Positions 868-44,400 of a DNA stretch of 64,000 nucleotides are shown piece by piece. Position numbers and translations under genes: made by a program. The DNA lies in NCBI GenBank assembly GCA_934255455.1, contig CAKQNS010000002.1, positions 11,007 to 75,006 of the forward strand, read 5' to 3'. Numbering within the stretch: position 1 is the stretch's first letter; the number at the start of each line of letters is the position of its first letter. The notes under the pieces are model-generated. The model had not been told where the DNA came from. It did not search any database and saw only the letters and a list, made by a program, of their open reading frames with translations. This stretch comes from an uncultured Alphaproteobacteria bacterium. Lineage in GTDB: Bacteria; Pseudomonadota; Alphaproteobacteria; Rs-D84.

Positions 868-1443
868 ATGAAATTTGCCGAATATATATTGAAAAAATCT
901 GAAAGCCCCGCGTACGCGTGGATGGTGTTTTTTCTGACAATATGTGAATCTATATTCCTGTTTGTCCCACCCGAGGTTTTTATGACCCCACCCATCATTG
1001 CGAACAAGAAACGCGCCCTGCCCATCACGGTGGCGGCGGCATTGGGTTCGATTGTCGGCGGCGCATTGGCATATTTAATTGGCGCATGGTTATACGATTC
1101 GGTCGGCGTTTGGCTGATAAATACTTTTTCAAACCCCGAATTGATTGAAACCGCCATAAAACCTATGTTTTCCAAATATGGCATATTGATTATAGTTTTG
1201 ACCGCGGTCACACCAATACCGTATAAATTGCTGGCGATATGGTTGGGATTTATCGGGTTCCCAATGTGGCTGTTCTTGGCGGTTTCGGCAATATTCCGCA
1301 CGGGCCGTTTTGCCATTGTCGGATATTTATTGTGGCGGTTCCAGGAACGCGCGAACGCAATTGTGAAAAAATATTTCTGGCCATTGACACTGGGCGCAAT
1401 TATCGCCGCCGGCCTGGGAATATGCATGATATCGCTGTTTTAA
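868..1443 (+). CDS. YqaA/DedA-like (VTT/SNARE-associated domain) inner-membrane protein
   Basis: 191 aa polytopic membrane protein with a COG1238-like layout. RBS AGGGGA upstream of ATG 868. Confidence 0.5.
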   Translation: MKFAEYILKKSESPAYAWMVFFLTICESIFLFVPPEVFMTPPIIANKKRALPITVAAALGSIVGGALAYLIGAWLYDSVGVWLINTFSNPELIETAIKPMFSKYGILIIVLTAVTPIPYKLLAIWLGFIGFPMWLFLAVSAIFRTGRFAIVGYLLWRFQERANAIVKKYFWPLTLGAIIAAGLGICMISLF

Positions 1444-1476
1444 GCCATCCGGCTCTGCTGGCGCGCCGCCGCTGTA

Positions 1477-1545
1477 AAAAGTTCAGAGTTCAAAGTGCAA
1501 AGTTCAAAGGATGTGTCCACCATCGGTGGACAGCATTAATAACCT
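1477..1545. repeat. Partial copy of the AAAGTTCAAA-rich palindromic repeat element (left arm plus divergent central hairpin tgtccaccatcggtggaca)
   Basis: aaaagttcagagttcaaagtgcaaagttcaaag matches the left arm of the ~98-bp elements at 8343 and 11341. The right arm is absent. Confidence 0.6.
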
Positions 1546-1741
1546 GGATCCCGGGGACACCCCGCCATGGCGGGCACCCCGGCTTCCCAGAGGGGAATTT
1601 AACTGTGTGGCTGGTACAGAGTGAATTCCCCTTCGCTGGCGAAGGGGTGGACGCGCAGCGGACGGGGCAGTGGTAAATATGTCCCCGCAACGGAAATGAA
1701 AAAGCGCGCCGTCGGCGCACTATCTATTATCTATGCTCTAA

Positions 1742-1768
1742 AAATGCGCCGATGGCGCATTTTTTATT
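1742..1768 (-). terminator. Intrinsic terminator (hairpin gcgccgatggcgc plus T-run) at the 3' end of family gene g1; part of the CTCTAAAAA-hairpin module
   Basis: GC hairpin flanked by an A-run and T-run immediately after stop codon 1764-1766 on the minus strand. Confidence 0.6.
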
Positions 1769-2195
1769 CTATCCAAATCGCGGCGTATGTGGTGGCATTT
1801 TGCCCACCAACCGGAATTTTTACATTACCCTTGGTCACGGTGACTTTACCATCGGTCTGGGATACATCGGTCACCACCGCACCCGTACCCGACGATGTGG
1901 AATCCAGCCCACTGATTGCTTCGGTCACGGCCTTTTGCGTCATTGCACCATCAGTGTTTGTACCTGTGGATGTATACAATTTGGTCACACCGGCCGTGGT
2001 ACCCGTACCCGTTGAATATGTCGTATCGGTTGCAGAAATAACAATTTTACCGGCATTCGCACCATTGGTTGGGGTTGAAACCGTGACATTATCCCCCGAA
2101 ACAATATTGGTTTTCGCCACAATATCCGCAAACGCCCCCGACCCCATAAACACGGCAACAAACAAACCGATAAAAATACCCCTAATAATTATCAT
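1764..2195 (-). CDS. Secreted Thr/Gly-rich protein, short member (g1) of the five-gene tandem family
   Basis: Signal peptide MIIIRGIFIGLFVAVFMGSGAFA. C-terminus …NATTYAAIWIE shares the Trp-containing C-terminal motif of the downstream paralogs. The ORF track starts at TTG 2210; an internal ATG at 2195 is the likely start. Confidence 0.5.
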   Translation of the reverse strand: MIIIRGIFIGLFVAVFMGSGAFADIVAKTNIVSGDNVTVSTPTNGANAGKIVISATDTTYSTGTGTTAGVTKLYTSTGTNTDGAMTQKAVTEAISGLDSTSSGTGAVVTDVSQTDGKVTVTKGNVKIPVGGQNATTYAAIWIE

Positions 2196-2282
2196 AGCCC
2201 TTGCATTCAAATATACACAATATTACCAAGACACATTCATAGTATGGCACCGCTGTCACGGCACCATACTATGCACGTTATA

Positions 2283-3341
2283 TTAACGACCGATATATTC
2301 CCAAACCAATGTTTGGGCACCACCCTCGGCAACTTTCAAGGTCAACGCATAATTACCAACCTTGGATAAATCATCGGTATTTTGTGCCAACTGTGTTGCC
2401 GAGATTTTACCCGCCGTGATAGCACTGTCGGCAATCTTTGCTGATGTGACATTTGCATCCGTAATCTTTGCGGTCGTCACGGCACTATCTGCCAATTTTT
2501 CAGTCGTGACATTTTTATCTGCAATCTTTGCGGTTGTGACATTTGCATCTGTAATCTTTGCTGTTGTCACGGCATTATCTGCCAGTTTTTCTGTTGTGAC
2601 ATTTTTATCTGCAATCTTTGCGGTCGTCACAGCATCGGCAGCCAATTTTGCAGCTGTCACATTTGCGTCTTTGATTTTTACTGTCGTCACAGCATCGGCA
2701 GCCAATTTTGCAGCTGTCACATTTGCGTCTTTGATTTTTACTGTTGTCACGGCATTATCTTCGATCATATCTGTTTTGATTTGACCAGTTATGATTTGAC
2801 CAGTGGCATTTGTGATAACGGCCAGGTTTTTATTTGCCTCCGTTTGGTTCTTATCAACCTTGCCATCAATCGAGTCTGCCAAATCTTTATTAACCGCATC
2901 AGCCGCATTTTTCGCAATTTCTTCGGCGACGGCAACGGTCGGGAACTTTACAGCCTTGTCGGTTGCATCTTTATTGTATGTTGTTTCTTTATTCGCAGAA
3001 TCTTCTTTGTCTTTTTTCAAACCATCAATTGCAGTTTTGTTTTCACCAATTGATGTTGTATGACCAGCAATTGCGTTTTTATTTGCTTCGATATCCTCTT
3101 TGATTGTTTTATCATCGTACGCAGTGCCCGTACCATCGATTGTGATTTTGCCATCAACAATTGTCACATCGATACCATTTGAACCGGCAAGATTTGCATC
3201 CGCCCCCCCAACTTTCAATGTGTCTTGTTTTGCCTTCAAACTCTCATCAACATACGTTGTTGCGGCGATATCTGCGCGGGCGGCACCGGCCGTCATAATT
3301 GCAATCATTGAAACTGCAAATATTCCCGATAATTTTTTCAT
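2283..3341 (-). CDS. Secreted repeat protein g2 of the tandem family (about 12 decapeptide repeats D-x-N/A-V-T-T-x-K-I/L-A)
   Basis: Start MKKLSGIF… at ATG 3341 with RBS AAGGAAAG. The first ~110 residues after the signal (…YVDESLKAKQDTLKVGGADANLAGSNGIDV…VKFPTVAVAEEIAKNAADAV) are nearly identical to g3. A 30-bp tandem repeat array encodes NAVTTVKIKDANVTAAKLAAD-type units. C-terminus GNYALTLKVAEGGAQTLVWEYIGR. Confidence 0.75.
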   Translation of the reverse strand: MKKLSGIFAVSMIAIMTAGAARADIAATTYVDESLKAKQDTLKVGGADANLAGSNGIDVTIVDGKITIDGTGTAYDDKTIKEDIEANKNAIAGHTTSIGENKTAIDGLKKDKEDSANKETTYNKDATDKAVKFPTVAVAEEIAKNAADAVNKDLADSIDGKVDKNQTEANKNLAVITNATGQIITGQIKTDMIEDNAVTTVKIKDANVTAAKLAADAVTTVKIKDANVTAAKLAADAVTTAKIADKNVTTEKLADNAVTTAKITDANVTTAKIADKNVTTEKLADSAVTTAKITDANVTSAKIADSAITAGKISATQLAQNTDDLSKVGNYALTLKVAEGGAQTLVWEYIGR

Positions 3342-3418
3342 TTTTCTTTCCTTTGCTTTCATTTATCAAAATTTATGCCATGGCACGCCAAACACGTACC
3401 ACGGCACTCGGTTATTTA

Positions 3419-4279
3419 TTATTCACCTGTAGCCGGGTTTTCATTCTCGGCGCGTTCAATAACTTCCCATGCGTATGCGGCGTTGTTATATGTCAAAACA
3501 CACTTGTTTGTCGGATTCTCACATTCGCCTGCTGGCTTTGGAATCGCTTCGTTAGCGGTTTTTTGTGCGGCATCCGCAGCGGACTTTGCTGTGGCGGCAT
3601 CCTCTACCCCCTTGTCTGCCTGGGTCTTGGCCTCTGTAATTTTTCCATCCAACGCAGTGTCGGCCGCAGTGTACGCATTTGTAATCGTGGTTGTTGCCGC
3701 GTCAATTTTATAATCAACCGAGCCCTCGGTGGTTTTATCGGCGTTCAATTTTGTAATTGCACTTGTATTTGTGCCAATGTTTGTTTCATTGGTGGAAACG
3801 CGCCCTTCCAATGTCGTTAAATCGGTTGAAACCGCATCAGCCGCATTTTTCGCAATTTCTTCGGCAACAGCAACGGTCGGGAACTTTACACCCTTGTCGG
3901 TTGCATCTTTATTGTATGTTGTTTCTTTATTCGCAGAATCTTCTTTGTCTTTTTTCAAACCATCAATTGCAGTTTTGTTTTCACCAATTGACGTTGTATG
4001 ACCAGCAATTGCGTTTTTATTTGCTTCGATATCCGCCTTGATTGTTTTATCATCGTACGCAGTGCCCGTACCATCGATTGTGATTTTGCCATCAACAATT
4101 TTCACATCGATACCATTTGAACCAGCAAGATTTGCATCCGCCCCCTCAACTTTCAATGTGTCTTGCTTTTTGCCGACCTCTTGGTCAACATATCCACGCG
4201 ATGCAACGGCGGCGTCGGCGCTGTTTGCGGCGACAATCCCCAACATTACGGTAAATATACCTGCGGTTAATTTTTTCAT
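3419..4279 (-). CDS. Secreted protein g3 of the tandem family
   Basis: Start MKKLTAGIF… with signal peptide. Same 5' upstream sequence (ttttttcatttttctttcctttc) as g2. Shared N-terminal domain with g2. C-terminus IPKPAGECENPTNKCVLTYNNAAYAWEVIE matches the C-terminal box of g4. Confidence 0.75.
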   Translation of the reverse strand: MKKLTAGIFTVMLGIVAANSADAAVASRGYVDQEVGKKQDTLKVEGADANLAGSNGIDVKIVDGKITIDGTGTAYDDKTIKADIEANKNAIAGHTTSIGENKTAIDGLKKDKEDSANKETTYNKDATDKGVKFPTVAVAEEIAKNAADAVSTDLTTLEGRVSTNETNIGTNTSAITKLNADKTTEGSVDYKIDAATTTITNAYTAADTALDGKITEAKTQADKGVEDAATAKSAADAAQKTANEAIPKPAGECENPTNKCVLTYNNAAYAWEVIERAENENPATGE

Positions 4280-4318
4280 TTTTCTTTCCTTTCTTTTTTT
4301 ATTGTTTTTTTAATTTGT

Positions 4319-5515
4319 TTATTCCAACGGTTCTGTCACATCCATCCAGTATGGGTTGCCATCCTTATCAACCGACAACACGCAACGTCCGGATTCGGCC
4401 GTGCAATTAACGCCTGGTTTCGGTACCGCGTATGCGGTCACGGCCTTGACGGATGTGTATTTGGTTGTGGAATCTTTGTCGGCGGTCGAAATCGCATCAA
4501 CACGGTTGGTGGTCTTTTCAACGCCATTTAATTCCGTCGTGATGTCGTTTTTGGTTGCCAAATCAGAAATTTTTGTTGTGGACATTTCATATTGCCCGGT
4601 TGCATTCACGGTTGCGATGCCGCCCGCGGTTTCGGCGGTCACACCGGTGACCTTGTCTGCCTTGGCCGCGACGGTGGTCGCCACGCCATCAATACGGGTG
4701 CCCAATGCGGTGTCGGCCTCGGTCAATGTGCTGACAGAATCGTCAACCAATGTATTCACCGCCTTGGCCGTTGGATATTGGTCGTCGGTCGAGGCCGCCG
4801 AAATTGTTGTCGTTTTGTTCGATACATCTTCCTTGCCCGCGACAGATGTTTTTAACGATGAAATATCGGTTTTATTCGTGTCAACCTGGGTCGATACGGT
4901 GCTCAACGCGGTTGCCGTGGCCAAATCGGTAATTTTGGTCGAAGAGGCTTCGTATTGGCCGCTTGCGTTCACGGTTGCGATGCCACCGGTGTTCGCCTCG
5001 GTCATACCAGAAACTTTATCAGCCTTGGCCGCCAATGCGTCGCCCATGTCGCCCGCGACAATTTGCGCAACTTTGTCTTCGGTAAATTTAACGATTGCAC
5101 CAACCGATGGATACAGTGTGCCCGACGCCTTGTTCTGGTCGGTAATTTCGGTTGCCTTGTTTGATGTATCTTCTTTGCCGGTCACGGCTTCTTGTAATGC
5201 GGCGACATTTGTTTCGGTCGTGCCAACACGCGTTGTCAAACCGTTCACCGTATTGTTGGTTGTTGTCAATGCCGCATTTGTTGCCAAATCGTCAATCTTG
5301 GTTGTTGAAACCTGGTATTGGCCATTTGCGTCAACCGTTGCGATGTTGCCGGCATTGTCGCCAACATTTGCAACCACGTTCGCCTTGGTGCCCGCCAAAT
5401 TATCAACATAGGCCTGGCTGGCAATTCGTTTTGCCGCCCCATCGGCCGCAGACGCCGCACCAACCGACATGATTGCCGCCATAAATCCAGAAAATGCGAT
5501 ATTATTTATTTTCAT
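4319..5515 (-). CDS. Secreted protein g4 of the tandem family
   Basis: Signal peptide MKINNIAFSGFMAAIMSVGAASA. ASQAYVDNLAGTK N-box. Repeated GIATVNASGQYE(A/M)S(S/T)TKI(T/S)DLAT units. C-terminus YAVPKPGVNCTAESGRCVLSVDKDGNPYWMDVTEP. RBS AAGGAAAAAA. Confidence 0.75.
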   Translation of the reverse strand: MKINNIAFSGFMAAIMSVGAASAADGAAKRIASQAYVDNLAGTKANVVANVGDNAGNIATVDANGQYQVSTTKIDDLATNAALTTTNNTVNGLTTRVGTTETNVAALQEAVTGKEDTSNKATEITDQNKASGTLYPSVGAIVKFTEDKVAQIVAGDMGDALAAKADKVSGMTEANTGGIATVNASGQYEASSTKITDLATATALSTVSTQVDTNKTDISSLKTSVAGKEDVSNKTTTISAASTDDQYPTAKAVNTLVDDSVSTLTEADTALGTRIDGVATTVAAKADKVTGVTAETAGGIATVNATGQYEMSTTKISDLATKNDITTELNGVEKTTNRVDAISTADKDSTTKYTSVKAVTAYAVPKPGVNCTAESGRCVLSVDKDGNPYWMDVTEPLE

Positions 5516-5560
5516 CTGTTTTTTCCTTGGTTATATCTTCGTTACTGTTTCCCGGTTTTA

Positions 5561-6973
5561 CTATGGTTCCACAATTACAATCTCGGACCACGCGCCACCA
5601 CCATTACCATCGGCCGCAAATATATAGTTGCCAGCCGTTTCGGGCGCCGTCATGCCACCAGTTGCCGAAATGGTATCGCCATCAATCGTGATGTTCGTGC
5701 CCGCGGTCAATTTATTTTGCTTGCCCGCCAACGCGGTGTTGATGTCGGTCTTGGTGTAATATTGGTCCGCATCAAATGTACCAGATTGGGTAATTTTCGC
5801 ATCAACCTCGGTCTTGGTATATGCGTCACCAATGCCATATCCCGCCAGGGTTGTTGCCTTGTCCGCCTTGGTCGCGATTGATGCAGTGTTTGCCTCTATC
5901 GCGGCGGTATTTGCATCTATGGCATTTTTATTTGCACTGATGTTTGTGGCATTCGCACCAATCAATGTACGCACCGCCGTGTCGTCATACGATTTCGCCG
6001 AAATGGTATCGCCATCAATCGTGATGTTCGTACCCGCGGTCAATTTATTTTGTTTGTCCGCCAATGCCGTGTTCGTTTCGGTCTTGGTATAATATTGTTC
6101 CGCATCAAATGTACCAGAATCACGGATTTTCGCATCAACTTCGGCCTTGGTATAAACATCCGTCTTGGCCGCATAGATTGCCGACAGTGCACTGATTGCA
6201 TCTGCAATCGCGGTGTTCATTTGCTCTGTTGTGGAATATGCACTTAAATCCGCCGGAGTACCGGGTTCACCCGCCGGCCCCTGGGGCCCAGTGATTTCCG
6301 CCTTGGAAATCAGAATTCGCCAATCAGCATCACCCTCGCCCGCATAGCGCCATAACAGGTCGTTGTCATTTGAACCAATTTCAACCTCGCGCCCATCCTG
6401 GCCGGCGATGCTGCCTATTTCGTCTTTTAACCCATCAACATCAACATAAATTTGATTTGTTGTATTATCAATTACAATAAAACCGTTCAGTGTCGGTTCC
6501 AGCGTATCTTGTTTGTCACCCAATTGGCTTGATAAACTATCGTCCGCTTGGTGCAGTTCCTCGGTATCGCGCTGTAATTGGTCAATTTGACGACGCAAAT
6601 CCGCCACAACCGACGGATCAGTTGTACCACCTTCGCCCGGTTCCGGACGCACAGAACTGCCCCCGCTGACGGATGTGGTGCCCCCCAAATATTTTCCAAT
6701 AGATAAACGCGGTGTTGTTGCCACACGACCCGTTGTTGTTGCGGCCACCGGCTTTGCCGTCGCCGTCGTGCCGGTTTTACCAGCCGTTGGTGTCACACGC
6801 AATGACCCCGCACGCGCCGCACCGGTCGATGTTGCATTTGATGCGGCCGACGCACTGGAGTATGTTCCAGCCCCACCCAGCGAACGCACCGACGATGCCG
6901 CGTCAGCCCCGGAAACCGTGGCGCACACCGCACACACAATCGCAAGTATCGATATTTTGGTGTTATTTTTCAT
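5561..6973 (-). CDS. Secreted protein g5 of the tandem family; collagen-like triplet and phage-tail-fibre-like repeats
   Basis: Signal peptide MKNNTKISILAIVCAVCATVSGADA. KQDTL box as in g2/g3. …WRILISKAEITGPQGPAGEPGTP… Two ~55-aa direct repeats YTK(A/T)EVDAKI…GTFDA(E/D)QYYTKT…LA(D/G)KQNKLTAGTNITIDGDTISA. C-terminus …GGGAWSEIVIVEP. Confidence 0.75.
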   Translation of the reverse strand: MKNNTKISILAIVCAVCATVSGADAASSVRSLGGAGTYSSASAASNATSTGAARAGSLRVTPTAGKTGTTATAKPVAATTTGRVATTPRLSIGKYLGGTTSVSGGSSVRPEPGEGGTTDPSVVADLRRQIDQLQRDTEELHQADDSLSSQLGDKQDTLEPTLNGFIVIDNTTNQIYVDVDGLKDEIGSIAGQDGREVEIGSNDNDLLWRYAGEGDADWRILISKAEITGPQGPAGEPGTPADLSAYSTTEQMNTAIADAISALSAIYAAKTDVYTKAEVDAKIRDSGTFDAEQYYTKTETNTALADKQNKLTAGTNITIDGDTISAKSYDDTAVRTLIGANATNISANKNAIDANTAAIEANTASIATKADKATTLAGYGIGDAYTKTEVDAKITQSGTFDADQYYTKTDINTALAGKQNKLTAGTNITIDGDTISATGGMTAPETAGNYIFAADGNGGGAWSEIVIVEP

Positions 6974-7035
6974 GACTCTCTCTGCTTACATTGATTCTAT
7001 CATATTTTGCGAATCGGGGTCAATACTTTTTCTCA

Positions 7036-7767
7036 TTAAAATTCGTATCTGACGCCAACCGAAATAGAATTATCCCAAATCATGTCGATTTTGTTTTCAA
7101 AATTGCCGTATGTCGGGGTGTTATCCTTGATACCAATGCTGTGTTTTGTGCCCGTCATACCCGCCAAACGATAACGCAAATCTAATATCAAATTGTCGTC
7201 CAATTTGGTTGAATATCCAACTGCGATGTTCGCCATTGGCGCAATTGATGTTTTGCTGCGACTGGTTCCATCGGAATATATATTTGCAAATTTAACATCC
7301 AATGTTGTCATTGGCGCGGCAATACCCAAACCACCACCAACATACACGCCGTTCAAGAAATCATAGTATCCGTTGGCCGAAATATATGGGATTTGCAGGC
7401 TGAATTCTGAACCTGCATCTTTGTCTTCGAAATGACCGATGTATCCGGCTTCGACCTCGCCCCGCCAGAAATAGCCAAAATGGCGACCGGCGGCCAAACT
7501 GCCCCCGAATACGGGTTCAAACGAATAACTGTCACTGTTGGACGACAAATCGGCACCCGCCGCCAACAAATCAGACGAGTATTTATTCTTCCAATTCAGG
7601 AAACTAATCTCGGCACGAGCGGTCATATACCAGCCTGTTTTTGCCTTGTCCGTGTAATCGTATGTCACATTATAACCGCCACGACGATCCGGTTGAATAT
7701 AGCTGGGCGCCGCGGTGGCCGCGGTTGTCATACCAACCAGCACAAACAACGAAACTAATTTTTTCAT
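7036..7767 (-). CDS. Outer-membrane beta-barrel protein (porin/OmpA-like barrel family)
   Basis: Signal peptide MKKLVSLFVLVGMTTAATAA. Alternating amphipathic beta-strand pattern. C-terminal …SVGVRYEF ends in the aromatic residue typical of OMP barrels. Strong RBS AAGGAG before ATG 7767. Confidence 0.65.
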   Translation of the reverse strand: MKKLVSLFVLVGMTTAATAAPSYIQPDRRGGYNVTYDYTDKAKTGWYMTARAEISFLNWKNKYSSDLLAAGADLSSNSDSYSFEPVFGGSLAAGRHFGYFWRGEVEAGYIGHFEDKDAGSEFSLQIPYISANGYYDFLNGVYVGGGLGIAAPMTTLDVKFANIYSDGTSRSKTSIAPMANIAVGYSTKLDDNLILDLRYRLAGMTGTKHSIGIKDNTPTYGNFENKIDMIWDNSISVGVRYEF

Positions 7768-7845
7768 GTTAAAATTCTCCTTCCAATATCTTGGGCAAAG
7801 TATATCACATTTTTGCCCTGTTTCAAAACCATAAAAAAACAAATA

Positions 7846-7874
7846 TTGACATTTTTGCAAATAATTTGTTTAAT
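7846..7874 (+). promoter_or_regulatory. Candidate sigma70-type promoter for pal (TTGACA-N17-TTTAAT)
   Basis: ttgacatttttgcaaataatttgtttaat lies 40-70 bp upstream of the pal ATG. Confidence 0.3.
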
Positions 7875-7915
7875 ATATATCAGGTGGGAATTATTCAACC
7901 GAAAAGGGAAAGATC

Positions 7916-8317
7916 ATGAAGAAAATTTTTGCTTGCATTACATTATTGGGTTTGGCGGCATGTTGTGGCGCCCCGAAAGACATTAATAATGACCAGGTTT
8001 ATTTCGCGTTTGATTCTGCAAAGATTTCGGATCAGGCACGCGACAGTCTGGATGCCCAGGCAAAATATATGAAATTACATCCCGACCAAAATGTCCGACT
8101 GGAGGGTCATTGTGACGAACGCGGTTCCACCGAATATAATTTGGCATTGGGCGCATTGCGCGCGGGCAACGCCGCACATGTTTTAATTCGTGACGGAATT
8201 GAACCAGAACGTATTAAAACTATTTCATACGGCAAAGAAAACCCGCAATACCCCGGCAGTGGCGAAGAAATATGGGCCAAAAACAGAAATGTCACAACCA
8301 AGGTTGTGGAAAAATAA
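7916..8317 (+). CDS. pal: Peptidoglycan-associated lipoprotein Pal (OmpA-family C-terminal domain)
   Basis: Lipobox LAACCG. …VYFAFDSAKISDQARDSLDAQAKYMKLHPDQNVRLEGHCDERGSTEYNLALGALRAGNAA…ISYGKENP is the canonical Pal/OmpA peptidoglycan-binding motif set. RBS AAGGGAAAG. Confidence 0.9.
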   Translation: MKKIFACITLLGLAACCGAPKDINNDQVYFAFDSAKISDQARDSLDAQAKYMKLHPDQNVRLEGHCDERGSTEYNLALGALRAGNAAHVLIRDGIEPERIKTISYGKENPQYPGSGEEIWAKNRNVTTKVVEK

Positions 8318-8319
8318 CA

Positions 8320-8343
8320 AACGGGGCATCGCCCCGTTTTTTC
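8320..8343 (+). terminator. Intrinsic terminator of pal (ggggcatcgcccc plus T-run)
   Basis: Perfect GC hairpin followed by TTTTTT, 3 bp after the pal stop. Confidence 0.7.
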
Positions 8344-8441
8344 AAAGTTCAAATACCAAAGTGCAAAGTTCAAATAATGTGTGCGCCGGATGACGCACTG
8401 CTTTATTCATTTGAACTTTGAACTCTGAACTTTGAACTTTT
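8343..8441. repeat. ~98-bp palindromic repeat element: AAAGTTCAAA-type arms around central hairpin gtgcgccggatgacgcac
   Basis: Imperfect inverted arms (aaagttcaaataccaaagtgcaaagttcaaataa … ttattcatttgaactttgaactctgaactttgaacttt). About 95% identical to the copy at 11341-11437. Confidence 0.8.
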
Positions 8442-8480
8442 CTTTTGACCCCGATTTTTTTTTTTACTAATATCCAAATC

Positions 8481-9272
8481 ATGGAAGAAAAGACAGCGAT
8501 TTCATTTGCAAATGTGGCCGCCGCGTACGACGGTGGGCGCGATGTTTTAACAGATGTTTCATTTAACATCAGTGCGGGGGCATTCTATTTCCTATCGGGC
8601 GCGTCGGGCGCGGGTAAAACCACCCTATTACGACTGATATACCAATTACACCGACCATCACGCGGGCAAATTAAATTATTCGGTCAACCAACCGACGGAA
8701 TTTCGCGCGACGATATTGCGCGCCTGCGTCACAAAATGGCGATTGTATTCCAAGAATATTCTTTGCTGTCACATTTGACGGTGTTTGACAACATTGCATT
8801 ACCGTTGCGTGTGCGCGGCCTGCCCGATGATAAAATAAAAAAATTGGTGGCCAAGGTTCTGGAATGGGTTGGCCTGGCCAAATATGCCGATGCAAACCCA
8901 ATGGCGCTGTCGGGCGGTCAACAACAACGCGTATCGGTTGCGCGTGCGATTATTAGCCAACCGGCGATATTACTGGCCGACGAACCGACCGGAAATCTGG
9001 ACGACGAAAACGCATCGCGGTTGATGGAACTGTTTATACAAATGAACAAAATGTTCGGCACAACGATAATTTTGGCCACCCATAATCAAAAATTGATGGA
9101 CACCTATAAATTCCCGGTTATTCACGTGGAAAACCATCGGGTTGGCTTTATTGGTGGCACGAAAAAGGCCCCTGCCCCGGAATCTGATGTGAAAAAGGTA
9201 TGGAAGGGCCCCAAGCCACAAAACTATTTTTCAGAATTATCAAAACAATTTGACGATATTGGGAACGCGTAA
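8481..9272 (+). CDS. ftsE: Cell-division ABC transporter ATPase FtsE
   Basis: Walker A GASGAGKTT, ABC signature LSGGQQQRV, Walker B LLADEPTGNLD. Stop overlaps the ftsX start. The ORF track begins at TTG 8445; ATG 8481 is the likely start. Confidence 0.85.
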   Translation: MEEKTAISFANVAAAYDGGRDVLTDVSFNISAGAFYFLSGASGAGKTTLLRLIYQLHRPSRGQIKLFGQPTDGISRDDIARLRHKMAIVFQEYSLLSHLTVFDNIALPLRVRGLPDDKIKKLVAKVLEWVGLAKYADANPMALSGGQQQRVSVARAIISQPAILLADEPTGNLDDENASRLMELFIQMNKMFGTTIILATHNQKLMDTYKFPVIHVENHRVGFIGGTKKAPAPESDVKKVWKGPKPQNYFSELSKQFDDIGNA

Positions 9273-10111
9273 TGAAAACACCTGTTGTATTTTCGCTGGT
9301 ACGCCAGCAATCTGTATTTATGACGGCAATTATGTCATTGCTGACATTTTTGGCGGTGCTGTCGCTGGGAATTGGATTGGCCATTGGTACCGGCGTTATG
9401 CGTTGGAATACCCAGTGGGATTTATTTGCAACGGTTCAAATAACCGATACAAAAAATGCCGCATCGGTAAAGCAAATTATTACCGATAATCACGACAAAA
9501 TGGCATCTGTTGATGAAATCACAACAACCGAAATGCAAAATTTAATGCGGCCGTGGCTGTCATCGGGTGGTGATACACTGAAAAAATACCTGCCACAAAT
9601 GTATGAAATAAAATTCAAATCTAAATCCGATTTGCAATATGTTGAACAGCAAATTTCAAATCGCGCGCGTTTTCTGACACATGCCAACGCGTTAAAGACA
9701 TCGACAAACGCGGGATGGTATTTGATTCTGATTTCAACACTGGTTTTGACAATGGTGTTGGGCACGATTGGCGTATGCATATCGTACATCGCACGCAATA
9801 CCGCAATGCTGCATAAACGCGAATTAGAAATATTAAACCAAATTGGCGCATCCGATTCGTTTGTTGCCCGCCAAATGCAAATCATTGTGGCAAAAATATC
9901 TGCAACATCGGGCCTGGTTGGGTTTATGGCGGCGGCATTGATTTTAATGATGGTGCTGGGCGCCGCACGCACCGCACGGGTTGGACTGATGGCGATGCTG
10001 GGGTTATCTGGGTGGGGATGGTTTGCATTGGCGTTGTTGCCGGTGGTAATTATGTTTTTCGCAATGGAAATTTCACGCCGTACGACATTAAAGATTCTTG
10101 AAAATAATTGA
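9272..10111 (+). CDS. ftsX: Cell-division permease FtsX
   Basis: 279 aa with four TM segments in FtsX topology (N-terminal TM, periplasmic loop, three C-terminal TM). Translationally coupled to ftsE. Confidence 0.75.
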   Translation: MKTPVVFSLVRQQSVFMTAIMSLLTFLAVLSLGIGLAIGTGVMRWNTQWDLFATVQITDTKNAASVKQIITDNHDKMASVDEITTTEMQNLMRPWLSSGGDTLKKYLPQMYEIKFKSKSDLQYVEQQISNRARFLTHANALKTSTNAGWYLILISTLVLTMVLGTIGVCISYIARNTAMLHKRELEILNQIGASDSFVARQMQIIVAKISATSGLVGFMAAALILMMVLGAARTARVGLMAMLGLSGWGWFALALLPVVIMFFAMEISRRTTLKILENN

Positions 10112-10620
10112 TGAAAATTTTAACACCATCTTTGCTGTTATTTGGATTATTCATATTGGGGGGCATAGTGTTCAAATCTATGGCCCCGACCCAATGTGGG
10201 CCAATACAATCAAACGACAGTATATTTGTTCTGACCGGGGATATGCGGCGTATACCGTTTGCAATGCGCATTGGGCGCCAATATCCCGACACGCAAATAT
10301 ACATCATTGGCGTTGGTGCCCCCACATCATACGAAATGACAAACCGCATCAATGTTGAATCGCAATCGAAATCAACATATCAAAATGCCGTGGCCATACG
10401 CGACATTGTTGCCCGCGAAAACCTGGCCCGCATTGTCGTCATAACGACCGAGGATCATATCAATCGTGCCATATATTTATTGCACGACGAATTACCCAAC
10501 ACGGACATAGTTGCATGCCCTGCTCGACTGTACGGTATGCCACCACCACAACGATTACAACGTTGGATAACCGAGTATATAAAATACATCGTCACAATGA
10601 CCGGAATCAAGGAAAGTTAA
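10108..10620 (+). CDS. DUF218 (YdcF/ElyC/SanA-family) envelope protein
   Basis: N-terminal TM, …IFVLTGDMRRI…STYQNAVAIRDI…IVVITTEDHINRA… typical of DUF218. Start overlaps the ftsX stop (ATGA). Confidence 0.6.
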   Translation: MMKILTPSLLLFGLFILGGIVFKSMAPTQCGPIQSNDSIFVLTGDMRRIPFAMRIGRQYPDTQIYIIGVGAPTSYEMTNRINVESQSKSTYQNAVAIRDIVARENLARIVVITTEDHINRAIYLLHDELPNTDIVACPARLYGMPPPQRLQRWITEYIKYIVTMTGIKES

Positions 10621-10630
10621 AGGAACAAAT

Positions 10631-11341
10631 ATGATGATAAAGACCGTGATATTTAAATTAGTATTGGCAATATATTATGTCGTGTGGTCACCAATTATTT
10701 TGATTGGATTGGTGTCCAAACCGCTGAACGATTTTCTGGTGCGGACATGTGCCGGTGGCGTTTTAGTGCTGGCCCGATTGATTGTTGGCATAAAATATGA
10801 AATACACTGTCCCCCAACCGAAGAAAACGGCATTCCATGCACGCCAAATGATAACGCGCGTCTGGACGGCAAGGCCATAATTGCCGCCAAACACATGTCT
10901 ATATTGGAAATAGCCATTTTGGCGACGCATATTCCAAATTCTTTTTTCATTGTAAAACGTGAAATTATATGGTTCCCAATTTACGGGTGGGCGTTTTGGC
11001 GTATGGGCCTGCAACCGGTGAACCGTGCGCGTGGCGCGACAAATATGCACAAATTGGCAACCAATGTGGCCGAAAAAATTATGGATGGCAAAATTCTGAT
11101 TATTTTCCCCGAGGGCACGCGTGTAAAACCAGGCCAACATATTTCATTGAAACGCGGCCTGTTGTACCTGGCCCATGAATTAAAATTACCCATTTTGCCG
11201 GTGGGAACCGATACAGGACTGTATTGGCCCAAACATGGCCGTATGCGTGGCGGCACCGCCAATGTTTGGTTTGAACCAATGCTGCCTTGCAACGCGTCAC
11301 TGGATGAAATCAGCGCAGCAATCAACCGCCACAGCGCATAA
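10631..11341 (+). CDS. plsC: 1-acyl-sn-glycerol-3-phosphate acyltransferase (LPLAT family)
   Basis: N-terminal TM; acyltransferase motifs (…AAKHMSILE… block I variant, FPEGTR block III, PILPVG block IV). Confidence 0.7.
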   Translation: MMIKTVIFKLVLAIYYVVWSPIILIGLVSKPLNDFLVRTCAGGVLVLARLIVGIKYEIHCPPTEENGIPCTPNDNARLDGKAIIAAKHMSILEIAILATHIPNSFFIVKREIIWFPIYGWAFWRMGLQPVNRARGATNMHKLATNVAEKIMDGKILIIFPEGTRVKPGQHISLKRGLLYLAHELKLPILPVGTDTGLYWPKHGRMRGGTANVWFEPMLPCNASLDEISAAINRHSA

Positions 11342-11437
11342 AAGTTCAAATACCAAAGTACAAAGTTCAAATAATGTGTGCGCCGAATGGCGCACTGCTT
11401 TATTCATTTGAACTTTGAACTCTGAACTTTGAACTTT
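11341..11437. repeat. Second full copy of the ~98-bp AAAGTTCAAA palindromic element (central hairpin gtgcgccgaatggcgcac)
   Basis: Near-identical to 8343-8441. Starts on the plsC stop codon. Confidence 0.8.
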
Positions 11438-11843
11438 ATTTGCACCATCCATCACGACGGCCACCACTGTATGGGCGCCCCAGTTTTTCGTCTATTAAAA
11501 TTTGCCCTATATCACGGTCGTCAATAAACACCAATGCATCAATCCGCCCCAAATATTTATCATCTTTTATCTGGCGCAAATCGGCCGTTTTGCCAATGGG
11601 CAACAACTGTTCCAACCGCGCGCGTGCACGATTTGCATCGCGTATCTCTGATTCACATGCACCATGAATTTCCGGCGTATCAACATTTCGTATGCGAACA
11701 CGCACGGTAATTTTTGTATCGTCGGCCAGCATAACACGCCCCGCAAAAGTATCGCCATCAATAATATAATCAACCACAACCGGCATGGCGTTTGCCACCC
11801 CAGTAACAAATAAAACCACCAAAAACGAAACTATCTTGAACAT
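11436..11843 (-). CDS. Secreted thermonuclease (SNase-like) family nuclease
   Basis: Signal peptide. …VVDYIIDGDTF…VRIRNVDTPEI… matches the staphylococcal-nuclease-like Ca-binding/active-site motifs (DGDT, DTPE). Confidence 0.6.
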   Translation of the reverse strand: MFKIVSFLVVLFVTGVANAMPVVVDYIIDGDTFAGRVMLADDTKITVRVRIRNVDTPEIHGACESEIRDANRARARLEQLLPIGKTADLRQIKDDKYLGRIDALVFIDDRDIGQILIDEKLGRPYSGGRRDGWCK

Positions 11844-11900
11844 CTATTCTCTATGCTCTATTATCTATGCTCTAAAAATGCGCCGTATGGCACATTTTTT
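11841..11900 (-). terminator. CTCTAAAAA-hairpin terminator module (copy b) at the 3' end of tolB
   Basis: catctattctctatgctctattatctatgctctaaaaatgcgccgtatggcacatttttt. Hairpin with one mismatch plus T-run. Abuts the nuclease start codon. Confidence 0.45.
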
Positions 11901-13218
11901 ATGGCAATTTGGGCGACCATGTTGGTTCAACGCCGTTTACCTCGTCGGGCAATGGAATGTCGTAAACATTTTGTCCGGTAATATCAACACTGCGAATATG
12001 GCTGATGCGTTCGATACCATCCAGGGCCTTTTCCGTTTCATAATATACCACCCGGCGCGAGCCTGGTGCCCAGGATGGGGCCTCCATATACCAGCCACCG
12101 GCCAATATTTTTTCATTGCGACCACGCGGGTCCATTACGCCTATATAGAATGTATCGTCAGCCATTTTAGTAAACGCAATAAATTGGCCATCGGGCGACC
12201 ACGCCGGTGTCGCATACCGACCCGCCCCGTATGTCAGGCGCGTTGGTTCCAATTTATCCAAATCCATAACCCATATTTGTTGGTTGCCACTGCGGTCTGA
12301 ATTAAACGCCATTTTTTTGCCATCGGGCGAATACGACGGACTGGTGTTCAATGAATTTCCAGATGTCAATTGGCGCAAAGATTTCTGTTCAATGTCGTAT
12401 TCATATATATGTGTTAAACCGTTTTTCACCAGCGACAGCGCAACACGCGACCCATCGGGCGAAAAACGCGGTGCGAAATTCATTCCGCCAAATTGCCCCA
12501 AACGACGTTGTTCACCGGTATCCAAATCCAACGTCCACACCATTGGATCATCATCGCGGAACGACAGGAAAACAACCGTTTGCATATTCGGCGAAAAATG
12601 CGGCGACATAACAAATGTATTTTTATCAGACAAATACCGCATTCCATATCCATCTTGGTCCATAATGGCCATCCGCTTTACGCGTTCACCAACCGGCCCT
12701 GTTTCGGCAATAAATACTATTTGGGTGTCGAAATATCCGATTTCCCCGGTCAGACGTTCATATATTGCATCGGCCATAATATGTGCCAAACGACGCACCG
12801 ATTTTTTGGACGATACCAGCGACTGCGCCTCAATCTGTTCTTTGCCGGCAACATCCCAAACATAAAATTCCAATTTATATCGCCCATCAGATTCCGCTTT
12901 CAATGTTGCCTGGACCAATACCTGGGCTTTAATGGCCGCCCATAACCCAAAATTAGGCATATCGCCCATCTTTACATATTCGGGCAACGCATCGTGCGAA
13001 ACAATGCGAAACAGTCCCGTTGATTTCAAATCGCGTTCAACAACATCGCGTACCATGGCGGCATCTTTGGACGATGCGCCCGCCCCTAATTCAAACTTTT
13101 GTACGGCAATTGATATAGGCTCGGTCGCACCAGCAATAATATCAACCTTTAATTCAGCATGCGCCGGCAACGCAAATGCGACACACAAAATAAACAAAGA
13201 CAATATCTTTTTTAACAT
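11899..13218 (-). CDS. tolB: Tol-Pal system periplasmic beta-propeller protein TolB
   Basis: Signal peptide MLKKILSLFILCVAFALPAHA (ATG 13218 with RBS AAAGGAAA). N-terminal TolB domain and C-terminal WD-like propeller repeats (…SPDGSRVAL…SPDGKKMAF…SPDGQFIAF…). Confidence 0.9.
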   Translation of the reverse strand: MLKKILSLFILCVAFALPAHAELKVDIIAGATEPISIAVQKFELGAGASSKDAAMVRDVVERDLKSTGLFRIVSHDALPEYVKMGDMPNFGLWAAIKAQVLVQATLKAESDGRYKLEFYVWDVAGKEQIEAQSLVSSKKSVRRLAHIMADAIYERLTGEIGYFDTQIVFIAETGPVGERVKRMAIMDQDGYGMRYLSDKNTFVMSPHFSPNMQTVVFLSFRDDDPMVWTLDLDTGEQRRLGQFGGMNFAPRFSPDGSRVALSLVKNGLTHIYEYDIEQKSLRQLTSGNSLNTSPSYSPDGKKMAFNSDRSGNQQIWVMDLDKLEPTRLTYGAGRYATPAWSPDGQFIAFTKMADDTFYIGVMDPRGRNEKILAGGWYMEAPSWAPGSRRVVYYETEKALDGIERISHIRSVDITGQNVYDIPLPDEVNGVEPTWSPKLP

Positions 13219-13374
13219 AATAAATTTCCTTTCCATACTTATACGCGTTTTATTCTATATTCATCCATTCAAAAAATCAAACATCTATTACCCGCGGCGC
13301 CATTATTCGCCCACAACGCAACCGCCCACACAGCGGTCATTACAGAGGTAATTACACCCGTATTCACATTTGTA

Positions 13375-13402
13375 TTGACAAACGCCAATACAATGTTATA
13401 GT
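13375..13402 (+). promoter_or_regulatory. Candidate sigma70-type promoter (TTGACA-N16-TATAGT) overlapping an inverted repeat tgtattg…caataca
   Basis: Near-consensus -35/-10, 45 bp upstream of the 13448 ORF. RBS TAGGAG at 13435-13440. Confidence 0.45.
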
Positions 13403-13447
13403 CATCTGTAAATACGCCAGTATTGTAGTTAGTATAGGAGTTCGTAT

Positions 13448-13672
13448 ATGCCAAATGTTATGCAGCAATTGTTCATAATGAACATAGAATCATTGCTGCG
13501 CGAATATGCCGCATACCGCGCGTTTAATAAATCAGATTGCGTTATAAATATGCGAATTCCACGCCCTATTCTGGACCGAATTAAACAGCTGGCGGACGAA
13601 CAGCATGTGCCGTATCAATCACTGATTTCGTCTGTACTGTTTTCACTGGCAAATATCGAAGATAAAAAATAA
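13448..13672 (+). CDS. CopG/RHH-type BrnA-like antitoxin-family small DNA-binding protein (orphan)
   Basis: 74 aa. …INMRIPRPILDRIKQLADEQHVPYQSLISSVLFSLAN matches the COG3514/BrnA pattern I.LRLP…L…IK.LA….VPYQSL. No BrnT-like partner ORF on either side. Confidence 0.5.
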   Translation: MPNVMQQLFIMNIESLLREYAAYRAFNKSDCVINMRIPRPILDRIKQLADEQHVPYQSLISSVLFSLANIEDKK

Positions 13673-14083: not shown

Positions 14084-14160
14084 AAAAAACCCCTTTTCCT
14101 TTTGGGGTAATTTTATCATAAATTCTGTCCCCATTCAAATACATTTTACAAACAATTACG

Positions 14161-14246
14161 CGCACCGTTTGGTGCGCGTAATATCTGTTATCTATGTTCT
14201 GTTGTCTATTCTCTAAAAAAAAATGCGCCGACGGCGCATTTTTTAT
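14161..14246 (-). terminator. CTCTAAAAA-hairpin terminator module (copy c): two hairpins (gcgcaccgtttggtgcgc; gcgccgacggcgc) plus T-run at the 3' end of the lipoprotein gene
   Basis: Same tatctgttatctatgttct…ctctaaaaa…gcgccgNNggcgc…tttttt layout as copies at 1701 and 11841. Confidence 0.5.
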
Positions 14247-43317: not shown

Positions 43318-44361
43318 ATGAATGGTTTAATACTGTTTGTTGGTGGAATGTTTTTATTGTGGATGGGTCGCACAATTTTAATTCCACTGTTGGTGGCAAC
43401 ATTTTTGTGGTATTTGATAAATGCTATATCAACATATTGTCGTATGGTTTTGCCATTTCACACCGACGATGCCCGACACGAATACCCAATTGGTGCACGC
43501 GTGTTTGATTGGGCGGCGCATTTAATTTCATTGGCGGTACTGGCGGCATTGCTGTACACATTTGCAACCCAAGTTCGGCCTATGTTTTCAGAATTATTGG
43601 CCGCCCTGCCCGCGATACAACATAAACTGATTGATTTTGGCGTGATGGCATCTGATAAATTGGGCATTGCGTTTGATACATCAATGTTGCCAAACATTAC
43701 AAAAATCGCCGGTGGCATTGGTGCATCATTGGCCGGCATCGCAACATCGGTCGGTATGATATGTGTATATCTGTTGTTTATGTTTATTGAACAAACGACA
43801 TTTGATAAAAAGTTTTCTGCACTGTTTCCAAATAAAACACAATCCAAAAAAATGCGCTATATTATCGGCAGCATAGACACCAATATGAAAAAATATTTGT
43901 TTATGAAAACACTGATTTCGGCGGCAACTGGGCTGCTGTCATATTTATGGTTGCATGCCATCGGATTGGAATTTGCCGGCGTGTGGGCGTTTATAGTATT
44001 TATCGCAAATTATATCCCAACAATTGGTGCAATTGTCGCATGCGGGCTGCCAATACTGTATGCATTGGCCGTATCGTCAACATTACATCTGCCAATACTG
44101 GTTGCGGCGGGCTTGATTGGTTTGCAAATATTACTGGGCAATATTATCGAACCAAAATTGACCGGAAAAACATTAAACCTGTCAACATTGGCAATTTTAA
44201 TAAACCTGGTATTCTGGGGAATGATTTGGGGTATTGCCGGAATGTTTTTCAGTGTTCCATTATTGGTGGCAACATTTATCATTACCGCACAATTTGATTC
44301 CACACGTTGGGTCGCGGTACTGTTGTCGGCCGACGGAAAAATCCCCGATAAAAATGATTGA
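43318..44361 (+). CDS. AI-2E family transporter (PerM/YhhT, UPF0118)
   Basis: ~350 aa, 7-8 TM, family-typical …KTLISAATGLLSYLWLHAIGLEFAGVWAFIVFIANYIPTIG… block. ATG 43318 with RBS AAAGGA. Confidence 0.65.
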   Translation: MNGLILFVGGMFLLWMGRTILIPLLVATFLWYLINAISTYCRMVLPFHTDDARHEYPIGARVFDWAAHLISLAVLAALLYTFATQVRPMFSELLAALPAIQHKLIDFGVMASDKLGIAFDTSMLPNITKIAGGIGASLAGIATSVGMICVYLLFMFIEQTTFDKKFSALFPNKTQSKKMRYIIGSIDTNMKKYLFMKTLISAATGLLSYLWLHAIGLEFAGVWAFIVFIANYIPTIGAIVACGLPILYALAVSSTLHLPILVAAGLIGLQILLGNIIEPKLTGKTLNLSTLAILINLVFWGMIWGIAGMFFSVPLLVATFIITAQFDSTRWVAVLLSADGKIPDKND

Positions 44362-44400
44362 TAAAAAACGCGCTGGATACATTAAATCCGGCGTTTTTTA

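Follow-up and report, generated by a model that had tools for sequence, protein, structure and literature searches.

Repetitive extragenic palindromic (REP) sequences and bacterial interspersed mosaic elements (BIMEs) number in the hundreds per genome, share a conserved 5′ tetranucleotide, are linked to a RAYT (Y1) transposase, and vary between strains; they are reported to function as weak terminators and as stabilizers of mRNA 3′ ends. These features were reportedly described by Gilson, Bachellier and colleagues, and the RAYT link by Nunvar and by Bertels and Rainey. What defines Rickettsia palindromic elements (RPEs) is that they insert in frame into protein-coding genes; they form sequence families of their own. 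Heptanucleotide repeats are the most abundant long class of simple-sequence repeats (SSRs) in most bacterial genomes, with slippage as the proposed origin, according to Mrazek 2007 as relayed in PMC4679880. Intergenic heptamer arrays of about four units, sometimes in inverted pairs, have been described in Xanthomonas (GGGAATC) and Nostoc (PMC4692102), and the TAACTGA arrays of Beggiatoaceae lie directly upstream of start codons (PMC4679880). Here, we describe a low-copy, lineage-specific family of elements built from heptamer arrays and a G+C-rich hairpin, represented by two near-identical copies, A and B, that follow pal and plsC in a 64,000-nt stretch of contig CAKQNS010000002.1 from an uncultured gut alphaproteobacterium (this whole stretch is referred to below as the window). 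It is close to certain that these elements belong to a dispersed modular repeat family, and as an overall explanation we give a mosaic, recombining, terminator-type element about even odds (probability of roughly 0.5).

In a repeat search of the window, copy A was placed at 8344-8440 and copy B at 11341-11437, the two forming a direct repeat of 97 nt with 97% identity and three mismatches. The first-pass annotation, made from the sequence of the window, had put their identity at ~95% and had correctly placed both at gene 3′ ends, A after pal and B after plsC. Each copy has arms of 32 nt that are 84% complementary and 33 nt apart. The units of these arms, described at first as direct repeats of ~10 bp, are tandem heptamers with a period of 7 in all arms as determined by Tandem Repeats Finder, and comprise AAAGTTC, AGAGTTC, and AAAGTGC together with a single odd unit, AAATACC. 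Allowing up to one mismatch, AAAGTTCAAA occurs 28 times in the window compared with 8.75 ± 2.7 times in shuffled sequence, and 19 of the 28 occurrences fall within just three loci, A, B, and a third termed C. Folding of A and B on both strands was well above that of shuffled sequence (z of −6.8 to −10.2), and the central hairpin shared by the two copies is GTGCGCC-N4-GGCGCAC. Listed by position, with the heptamer type of the arms abbreviated F1, the two copies and their immediate surroundings are composed as follows.

8319..8342, plus strand: intrinsic terminator of pal, AAACGGGGCATCGCCCCGTTT plus a T-run; copy A begins 1 nt past the T-run.
8344..8375, plus strand: left F1 array of copy A in sense orientation, AAAGTTC AAATACC AAAGTGC AAAGTTC AAAT.
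8376..8409, no strand assigned: core of copy A, with linker AATGT, hairpin GTGCGCC-GGAT-GACGCAC (8381-8398), and U-rich tail TGCTTTATTCA.
8410..8440, minus strand: right array of copy A, F1 in antisense orientation, TTTGAAC TTTGAAC TCTGAAC TTTGAAC TTT.
8445..8473, plus strand: promoter-like site of ftsE, TTGACC-17-TAATAT, 4 nt past copy A.
11341..11372, plus strand: left F1 array of copy B, overlapping the final A of the plsC stop codon.
11373..11406, no strand assigned: core of copy B, with linker, perfect hairpin GTGCGCC-GAAT-GGCGCAC (11378-11395), and tail TGCTTTATTCA; terminator-like on both strands.
11407..11437, minus strand: right array of copy B, F1 in antisense orientation, with its last two T's in the stop codon of the convergent 135-aa open reading frame (ORF).
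11436-11843, minus strand: 135-aa ORF, convergent to plsC.

Gene order across this region is pal (+), copy A, ftsE, ftsX, a DUF218 gene, a PlsC-type acyltransferase gene (+), copy B, the 135-aa ORF (−), and tolB (−). Copy A sits between the strong pal terminator and the ftsE promoter-like site, and copy B fills precisely the whole gap between the stop codons of plsC and the 135-aa ORF.

Related stretches compared with the window are labeled below with L-numbers. A scan of metagenome contigs with the junction sequence CAAAGTTCAAAKRATGTGTSC matched 24 stretches. One of them (L270) is without a hairpin and seems to be a partial match or one due to chance. The remaining 23 have a constant left half, made up of 1.5 to 7 array units of the AAAGTTC type, TAATGT, and a 7- to 8-bp G+C stem whose loop varies by locus. 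The right half is of type i (TGCTTTATTCA plus an inverted array, as in A and B), type ii (TATCTATTATCTATGCTCT plus a second terminator, as at window positions 1721-1764), or type iii (TTTATTTA plus an insert of ~130 bp that resembles a miniature inverted-repeat transposable element [MITE]), and some half-elements elsewhere are joined to nothing further. The half-element can be described as three to seven tandem A-R-A-G-N-N-Y heptamers, the linker AATAATGT, a 7- to 8-bp G+C stem with a 3- to 5-nt loop, and the U-rich tail TGCTTTATTYA; the 97-bp imperfect palindrome of A and B is this half-element plus a second, inverted heptamer array beyond the tail. The palindrome, taken at first as the defining unit, does not hold for the family, as half-elements and elements with noncomplementary arms are common.

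Modules were also found lost, replaced, or interrupted. Among strain variants of the sites of A and B, L007 carries array, linker, hairpin, and tail and is missing the right arm, which in the window is flanked by CTTTATT (7 nt). L002 has AGAGAGC/AAAGCGC heptamers plus ~170 bp in place of the left arm, and in L006 arm and hairpin are separated by a palindromic insert of ~130 bp. L248 and L249 represent one locus with hairpin, loop, and promoter-side array alike and both sides of the hairpin different; these alleles did not arise by a simple inversion between the arms, because the orientation of the loop is unchanged in both. The ~130-bp palindromic MITE-like element (CTGGATTGC..TCGCAATGACA..TGTCATTGCGAGC..GGCAATCCAG) lies directly past the tail TTTATTTA, often between two hairpins, and was present in L006 (~5547-5690), L251-L254, L257, L259-L261, L264 (2318-2405), L267, and L271. 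It does not occur in the window, which has just one stray CTGGATTGC at 42966.

Across 18 distinct copies, compensatory double changes were identified in four of the seven stem pairs and the loops vary freely, which indicates that the stem is under structural selection and the loop is free. Orthologous arrays differ by 7, 14, or 21 bp (L264/L265/L269; L268; L252/L253), and two versus four units are found at the tolB spacer; the arrays appear to behave as SSRs that grow and shrink in 7-bp steps by slippage. Unit order and the unique linker-hairpin-tail sequence are identical at unlinked loci, which argues that whole modules were copied and not grown in place.

Beyond A and B, the window contains copy C and three further modules made from a second heptamer type, F2 (TCTATTA/TCTATGC; AGAGCAT/AGATAAT on the other strand), at 1703-1764, 11841-11903, and 14155-14244. 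The array and linker of copy C are as in A and B. What had been reported as a half copy at 1477-1545 is not a truncated copy and turned out to be one end of a longer mosaic reaching 1764. These modules are as follows.

1478..1509, plus strand: F1 array of copy C, AAAGTTC AGAGTTC AAAGTGC AAAGTTC AAAG.
~1513..1532, no strand assigned: hairpin of copy C, GTGTCCACC-ATC-GGTGGACA (GTCCACC-ATC-GGTGGAC), with stem letters unlike those of A and B and the pairing kept.
1703..1764, no strand assigned: far end of the copy-C mosaic, with hairpin GCGCGCC-GTC-GGCGCAC, F2 antisense array TATCTATTATCTATGCTCT, and bidirectional terminator AAAAATGCGCCGATGGCGCATTTTT.
11841..11903, minus strand: tolB terminator, then F2 array AGAGCAT AGATAAT AGAGCAT AGAGAAT AG, which ends exactly at the ATG of the 135-aa ORF.
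14155..14244, minus strand: locus 5, with terminator, F2 array (AGAGAAT AGACAAC AGAACAT AGATAAC AGAT), hairpin ATTACGCGCACC-AAAC-GGTGCGCGTAAT, and the next promoter.

All five window loci are intergenic, and no period-7 arrays were identified in the window from 15 to 64 kb. The array in the spacer between tolB and the 135-aa ORF has four units in the window and L002 and two in L272 and L007; in L278 this spacer is 22 nt long, without terminator or array. Inside the copy-C mosaic, ~150 nt at 1545-1695 are G+C rich and hairpin rich (CCCGGGGACACCCCGCCATGGCGGGCACCCCGG.., AATTCCCCTTCGCTGGCGAAGGGG..) with no match in Rfam, and the element that L272 carries at the plsC site has a G+C-rich center resembling this segment.

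The number of junction matches per contig was four on 935 kb, two on 590 kb, and two on 432 kb, a density of ~1 per 200 to 300 kb for the main junction type; other linker variants would raise the copy number, not by orders of magnitude. Judged by their flanks, the matches come from roughly a dozen separate loci in related assemblies from the gut. From the 27 related stretches compared with the window (the 24 junction matches plus L224, L150, and L164), 15 were without homology and 4 matched via the element alone, and those remaining correspond to the pal-ftsE, plsC, copy-C, and locus 5 sites. A local duplication, which the first-pass annotation had set against its proposal of a dispersed repeat, is thus not what was found, given a junction present at ~12 loci, most of them without homology to the window. 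The exact PlsC protein of the window occurs on human gut metagenome contigs (Hadza and others). FtsE homologs were found in metagenome-assembled genomes (MAGs) labeled Alphaproteobacteria, and relatives with 79 to 87% FtsE identity keep the gene order.

The elements occupy a particular kind of gap. In 15 of 22 usable junctions (assessed by eye) the array starts 0 to 6 nt past a terminator T-run or the CCA end of a tRNA, and of the seven others, six represent the arm on the promoter side of elements that occupy a gap of this same kind. Array starts likewise adjoin terminators at window positions 1740, 11875, and 14218, and this holds for the second and third array types. The occupied gap extends from the T-run, tRNA CCA end, or stop codon up to the following −35 box, convergent stop codon, or second terminator.

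Orthologous sites were found filled, empty, or differently filled. Between pal and ftsE, the window has T6, C, the 97-bp element, T, and CTTTTGACC (the −35 box), and L272 has the terminator, T7, and then directly CTTTTGACC, constituting an empty site; the same site is also empty in L274 and L278. The gap between plsC and the 135-aa ORF is 27 nt with a terminator only in L278 and 10 nt and empty in L276, and it is filled by a different element in L272 (AGAGAGC-type array, G+C-rich center, and short inverted array) and by a type iii version in L264. At locus 5, L276 has an empty site, whereas the window and L002 carry an array of the AGAGAAT type with a hairpin; F1-type modules fill the site in L272 (an AGAGTGC/AGAGTTC array plus hairpin), in L007 (a full AAAGTTC half-element), and in L257 (a half-element plus a 130-bp insert). 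Empty and alternatively filled orthologous sites indicate that the elements are acquired DNA that has repeatedly occupied the same short gaps. Comparison of filled and empty sites gave a possible 5-bp TTTTC duplication at pal-ftsE and nothing consistent at the plsC-ORF gap; because the targets are T rich, boundaries are blurred and any target-site duplication is indistinct. The early suggestion of a mobile repeat inserting near or into genes is supported insofar as the elements are insertions beside genes relative to sister species; the window copies are strictly intergenic. The sole coding-region case seen was in L220 (~6650-6690; record labeled as a Bacteroides fragilis bin), where an AAAGTTC-type array plus AAATAATG lies in frame in an MnmE-like GTPase ORF (..HVIDGGQSSEFKVQSSNNEIIVINKSDL..); this case involves the array only and not a whole element.

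The plsC site also differs between close relatives. Four strains (L002, L003, L006, and L007) keep the plsC terminator AAAAACGCCCGAATGGGCGTTTTTT ahead of copy B. The window strain is without it (11339-11345) owing to a 29-bp deletion between two ATAAAA repeats, which left B directly on the stop codon. At this same site, positions 1-1130 of L007 are 99.7% identical to the window (10304-11404) up to B, and beyond it (1124-11038; window 11434 onward) identity is ~79%; this break marks a point of recombination or else a metagenome assembly that is chimeric and joined at the repeat. In L001-L006, conservation is higher in the ftsEX-plsC segment enclosed by A and B than on either side of it, and a recombination cassette was considered and rejected, since these loci had been retrieved by their identical PlsC sequence and the conservation reflects ascertainment bias.

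What the hairpin could do is suggested by its layout and its position. A terminator pattern scan lists both 11378-11395 and 8381-8398, each on both strands. The stem GTGCGCC..GGCGCAC is nearly identical to the ordinary terminator stems of this lineage, such as those at 1740 (AAAAATGCGCCGATGGCGCATTTTT) and 14218, both with TGCGCC..GGCGCA, and the pal terminator of L272, AAAGTGCGCCAACGGCGCATTTTTTT. On both strands an A-rich array lies 5′ and a U-rich array or tail lies 3′ of the stem, which is the layout of the A-tract/stem/T-tract bidirectional terminators of this genome, making a backup two-way terminator or insulator the most likely role. With the plsC terminator lost to the 29-bp deletion, no hairpin other than B follows plsC in the window strain. 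In L260 and L271, an element directly 3′ of a tRNA is the sole hairpin there. In L224, the 93 nt that separate two convergent stop codons are taken up exactly by the element, without any other terminator, and the orthologous convergent pair of the window (stop codons at 44359-44361 and 44401-44403) has a 39-nt gap, 44362-44400, with a conventional bidirectional terminator. By position, then, the element appears to replace an ordinary terminator, and this provides the best available argument for a two-way terminator or insulator. Of the terminator or mRNA-stabilizing role put forward at first, the terminator part is plausible in light of the two-strand scan and the substitution in L224. Going by these sequence features, the chance that the hairpin acts as a terminator is perhaps a shade under even.

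Under the explanation preferred here, the hairpin would provide a spare two-way transcription stop or insulator behind a gene's own terminator. Read-through RNA would carry the element's hairpin at its 3′ end, and where the gene's own terminator is missing, the element would be the only terminator. Arrays would lengthen and shorten via slippage in 7-bp steps, and recombination between copies would spread and reshuffle the modules.

Several observations weigh against this explanation. The G+C hairpin noted at first in the center of both copies holds as GTGCGCC-N4-GGCGCAC, but the stem of copy A itself has a C·A mismatch (GACGCAC) in the window strain and, at −7 kcal/mol (z of −0.7), folds no better than shuffled sequence; this damaged stem fits relaxed constraint at that site. 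The U-tract after the hairpin is interrupted (UGCUUUAUUCAUUU on one strand and ACAUUAUUUGAAC on the other), so that, judged by E. coli rules, it would be a weak terminator at best. The majority of copies are located directly behind an already strong terminator, where a second one seems redundant. Spread by recombination is suggested by mosaicism alone. The three array types, although they look unrelated, keep A-R-A-G-N-N-Y, four to five units, and a fixed phase from the T-run, and they point at the hairpin, none of which is explained by a terminator role. Such a role also leaves clustering unexplained: all five window loci are within the first 15 kb, and L249 represents another cluster, with five arrays within 9 kb.

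Heptamer arrays of this kind are not confined to the alphaproteobacterial lineage. When one genome per species was scanned for three units of the AAGTTCA class, at least 120 matches were obtained, against a chance expectation of ~0.5 by our own uniform-composition estimate. Those listed are from Acidobacteriota, Planctomycetota, Verrucomicrobiota, Bacteroidota, Cyanobacteria, Patescibacteria, Clostridia, and Alphaproteobacteria. The looser pattern (TGNNCTY)x4 also gave at least 120 matches, even in viral contigs and with many NN dinucleotides, and was useless for this family; as other heptamer arrays are equally common, the cross-phylum AAGTTCA-class matches are partly a product of the search choice. 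When 1,944 ORFs lying up to 3.5 kb from the arrays of the 120 loci listed were compared all against all, no shared mobile-element gene was identified, with no family found in more than four loci. Transcription of the arrays in sense across phyla was considered and rejected, with 23 co-oriented versus 27 anti-oriented arrays in tandem-gene contexts by crude gene calls. The cross-phylum arrays have no one-sided hairpin excess, and a T-run adjoins only 3 of 128, which argues that adjacency to terminators is specific to the alphaproteobacterial lineage. Inverted pairs of AAGTTCA/GAGTGCA-class arrays in the order [RAGTKCA]n then [TGMACTY]n, with a spacer of 20 to 130 nt, outnumbered the opposite order 16 to 0 under strict criteria among the matches listed; they are mostly from Acidobacteriota, and also from Verrucomicrobiota, Planctomycetota, Clostridia, and Patescibacteria, representing few independent lineages. 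By eye, the Akkermansia locus L137 has the reverse pair orientation. Inverted-pair loci within L128-L247 include L130, L132, L135, L144, L149, L151, L156, L219, L228, L240, and L242, and the cross-phylum arrays often grade into different heptamers, among them GGACTCC, GAGCGAA, and AGGAATT. The alphaproteobacterial matches share the architecture seen in the window: L224 (stem GTGCCGGC..GCCGGCAC), L164 (noncomplementary arms GAGTTCA/TGCACAC), and L150 ("Candidatus Enterousia").

The presence and absence of elements at orthologous sites is also consistent with a classical MITE, in which the heptamer arrays would serve as terminal inverted repeats, each a series of transposase-binding sites, and a transposase from another part of the genome would carry the 97-bp unit into T-rich DNA directly after terminators, its preferred target. 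Copies A and B are 97% identical in their unique as well as their repeated parts, and the odd order AAAGTTC AAATACC AAAGTGC AAAGTTC at five loci in at least two species indicates that whole units were copied. The possible 5-bp TTTTC duplication at pal-ftsE and the CTTTATT flanking the arm that L007 lacks would also be in keeping with a MITE. However, no duplication could be separated from the T-rich target, and the two filled sites share none. Arms are dispensable or noncomplementary in many copies (L007, type ii, and L164), and left flank, right flank, and center are swapped independently. No neighboring gene is common to the 120 array loci listed and no transposase was seen beside the elements, their density is low, and 7 bp is short for a transposase site. 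A MITE, among the likenesses first proposed, thus seems unlikely. Identical unit order and unique linkers at unlinked loci, covarying stems, and an orientation relative to the hairpin that is constant argue against the elements having no function, as do the replacement of a conventional terminator at an orthologous convergent pair and the sole hairpins after plsC and after a tRNA. In that case, the arrays would be heptanucleotide SSRs produced by slippage in post-terminator gaps, which would be the sole dispensable DNA in a compact genome, hitchhiking with duplicated terminator hairpins, and the palindrome would be incidental. Heptamers are indeed the commonest long SSR class in bacteria, with slippage proposed, arrays of many other TGNNCTY heptamers exist, and the same class is present in many phyla (>120 stretches); polymorphic unit number, point changes in arrays between near-identical strains, the damaged stem of copy A, and empty sites in sister species would also be accommodated. 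On this evidence a complete lack of function is doubtful.

By analogy, the arrays could be binding sites of an oligomeric protein that controls termination or the adjacent promoter, on DNA in the manner of omega of pSM19035, a ribbon-helix-helix protein with 7-bp heptads in its operators and parS, or on RNA in the manner of HutP, which like TRAP is a Bacillus-type protein. The three array types keep A-R-A-G-N-N-Y, which can be read as RAG plus a 4-nt spacer, in four to five units with fixed phase and orientation by the hairpin. They abut −35 boxes or end at a start codon, but elements also lie between convergent genes, with nothing downstream to regulate, and they are dispensable, as sister-species sites are empty. 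Inverted pairs at cross-phylum loci are always [RAGTKCA]n..[TGMACTY]n (16 to 0), a count dominated by Acidobacteriota, and these loci show neither an orientation bias relative to genes nor a one-sided hairpin excess. No protein stands out as a candidate. The CopG-like gene close by (13448-13672) carries 12-nt repeats of its own and stays in species with empty sites. There are precedents for such binding, as omega/ParB of pSM19035 needs at least four contiguous 7-bp heptads in any orientation (PMC9499535), and HutP reads XAG triplets ~7 nt apart (U498, U505, and U512) at sites flanking a G+C terminator stem (PMC2425495). In the elements described here the right arm is antisense, so RNA would carry only one XAG-type site. 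A protein-binding role of the arrays, on DNA or on RNA, appears improbable. A stronger version, in which the arrays and not the hairpin are the functional core and (RAG-N4)n runs of four to five units, directed at a hairpin from either side, load an oligomeric protein (a ribbon-helix-helix DNA binder comparable to omega/ParB or a ring-shaped RNA binder comparable to HutP or TRAP) that tunes passage through the terminator or initiation at the adjacent promoter, is by the same analogy very unlikely. If true, [RAGTKCA]n-spacer-[TGMACTY]n across phyla would represent a widespread regulatory or architectural device, giving the heptanucleotide-repeat excess a function.

Other candidate identities were rejected. 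As a DNA-uptake sequence, GTGCGCC exceeds its zero-order expectation only ~4-fold, in line with other words rich in G+C, and outside the arrays the heptamers show no enrichment. The alphaproteobacterial LexA box is GTTC-N7-GTTC, and the spacing here is N3. A small ORF in the element (MCAPDDALLYSFEL) has no Shine-Dalgarno sequence and is not kept in other variants. In Rfam, only the two tRNAs of the window pass the gathering threshold, and the element reached neither this nor the E-value threshold; its best matches are generic hairpin likenesses to miRNA precursors, at 26 bits versus 70 to 100. No match to the element was identified in a plasmid collection, and a phage collection gave a single array match of 31 nt.

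The genes around the elements have features of their own. On the minus strand at 2283-6973, four consecutive paralogous ORFs contain tandem repeats of 30, 60, and 90 nt and a 300-nt segment duplicated at 96%. Their lengths vary by strain (352, 302, and 332 aa; 491, 470, and 437 aa), and weak Pfam matches only were obtained (Decapeptide and Alanine_zipper; Collagen in L272). These repeat-bearing paralogs are probably variable surface proteins, encoded beside an outer membrane protein beta-barrel gene. In most Proteobacteria tolB and pal usually form one operon. At 7916-13236 of the window they are convergent, separated by ftsE-ftsX-DUF218-plsC and the small ORF, an arrangement conserved across the lineage (L272-L279), with L276 lacking pal at this position. 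A 74-aa CopG-type ribbon-helix-helix gene on the plus strand (13448-13672), located among the clustered heptamer elements, has a near-consensus promoter, TTGACA-16-TATAGT, at 13375. Direct repeats of 12 nt lie in one set on each side of this promoter (13330-13356 and 13419-13448) and are probably the gene's own operator.

To our knowledge, since the reports of 2007 on the over-representation of heptanucleotide repeats, nothing beyond slippage has been proposed for their function or mechanism. The heptamers described here are part of a copyable module, with a covarying hairpin and a fixed place by terminators. Filled, empty, and differently filled orthologous sites in closely related, abundant gut bacteria make a role of heptanucleotide arrays testable. 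The elements are also repeats at which strain recombination or assembly breaks occur in gut MAGs, as with the identity break in L007, and they alter intergenic signals ahead of cell-envelope genes (ftsEX, plsC, and tol-pal). If the hairpin is merely a spare terminator and the arrays are products of slippage, the family would be a tidy, ordinary addition to bacterial intergenic repeats.

Compared with known systems, the family shares with RPEs palindromic repeats of ~100 bp in an alphaproteobacterium. The window copies are, however, strictly intergenic and built of heptamers; the RPE-like character first suggested is not upheld, with no in-frame insertion into an ORF seen in the window, and nothing points to the intracellular host that such a comparison implied, the source being an uncultured gut alphaproteobacterium. 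Like MITEs (Correia/NEMIS, RUP, and Nezha), the elements are ~100 bp long, noncoding, and intergenic, with inverted ends and presence/absence polymorphism, but their 7-mer ends are sometimes absent or noncomplementary and submodules exchange independently. Terminal inverted repeats are not present in every copy: L007 has no right arm, type ii has another heptamer, and L164 has GAGTTCA versus TGCACAC. No resolvable target-site duplication and no partner transposase were seen. Heptanucleotide SSRs, such as the short tandemly repeated repetitive (STRR) sequences of Calothrix and Nostoc and the arrays of Xanthomonas and Beggiatoaceae, also comprise about four imperfect 7-nt units, are intergenic, and vary in length between relatives. 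Those arrays number hundreds per genome, have other units, and have not been described in a module with a linker and a G+C hairpin by terminators. STRR-type local slippage would leave no shared unique flanks, whereas unit order and linker-hairpin-tail are shared here at unlinked loci. With omega and HutP the likeness lies in 7-nt periodicity and at least three to four contiguous units, in direct or inverted order (omega) or flanking a terminator stem (HutP); the unit sequences are different and the elements here are dispensable and chromosomal, so the analogy is one of layout only. Bidirectional Rho-independent terminators have the same A-rich 5′ flank, 7- to 8-bp G+C stem, and U-rich 3′ flank on both strands and also lie between stop codons, but here heptamer arrays stand in for the homopolymer tracts of the flanks, the U-tract is broken, and the element is usually behind another terminator. 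REP sequences and BIMEs are likewise extragenic, G+C-rich imperfect palindromes near gene 3′ ends, between convergent or tandem genes, and form variable mosaics. The REP-like label given at first is apt for an extragenic palindrome in mosaics at gene ends, but not for copy number, which is low here at ~1 per 200 to 300 kb; the flanks are tandem heptamers, the conserved flank is AATAATGT and not GTAG, and there is no sequence similarity. The family is thus a mosaic intergenic repeat made of heptamer arrays and a terminator-type hairpin, and its nearest working likeness is the BIME.

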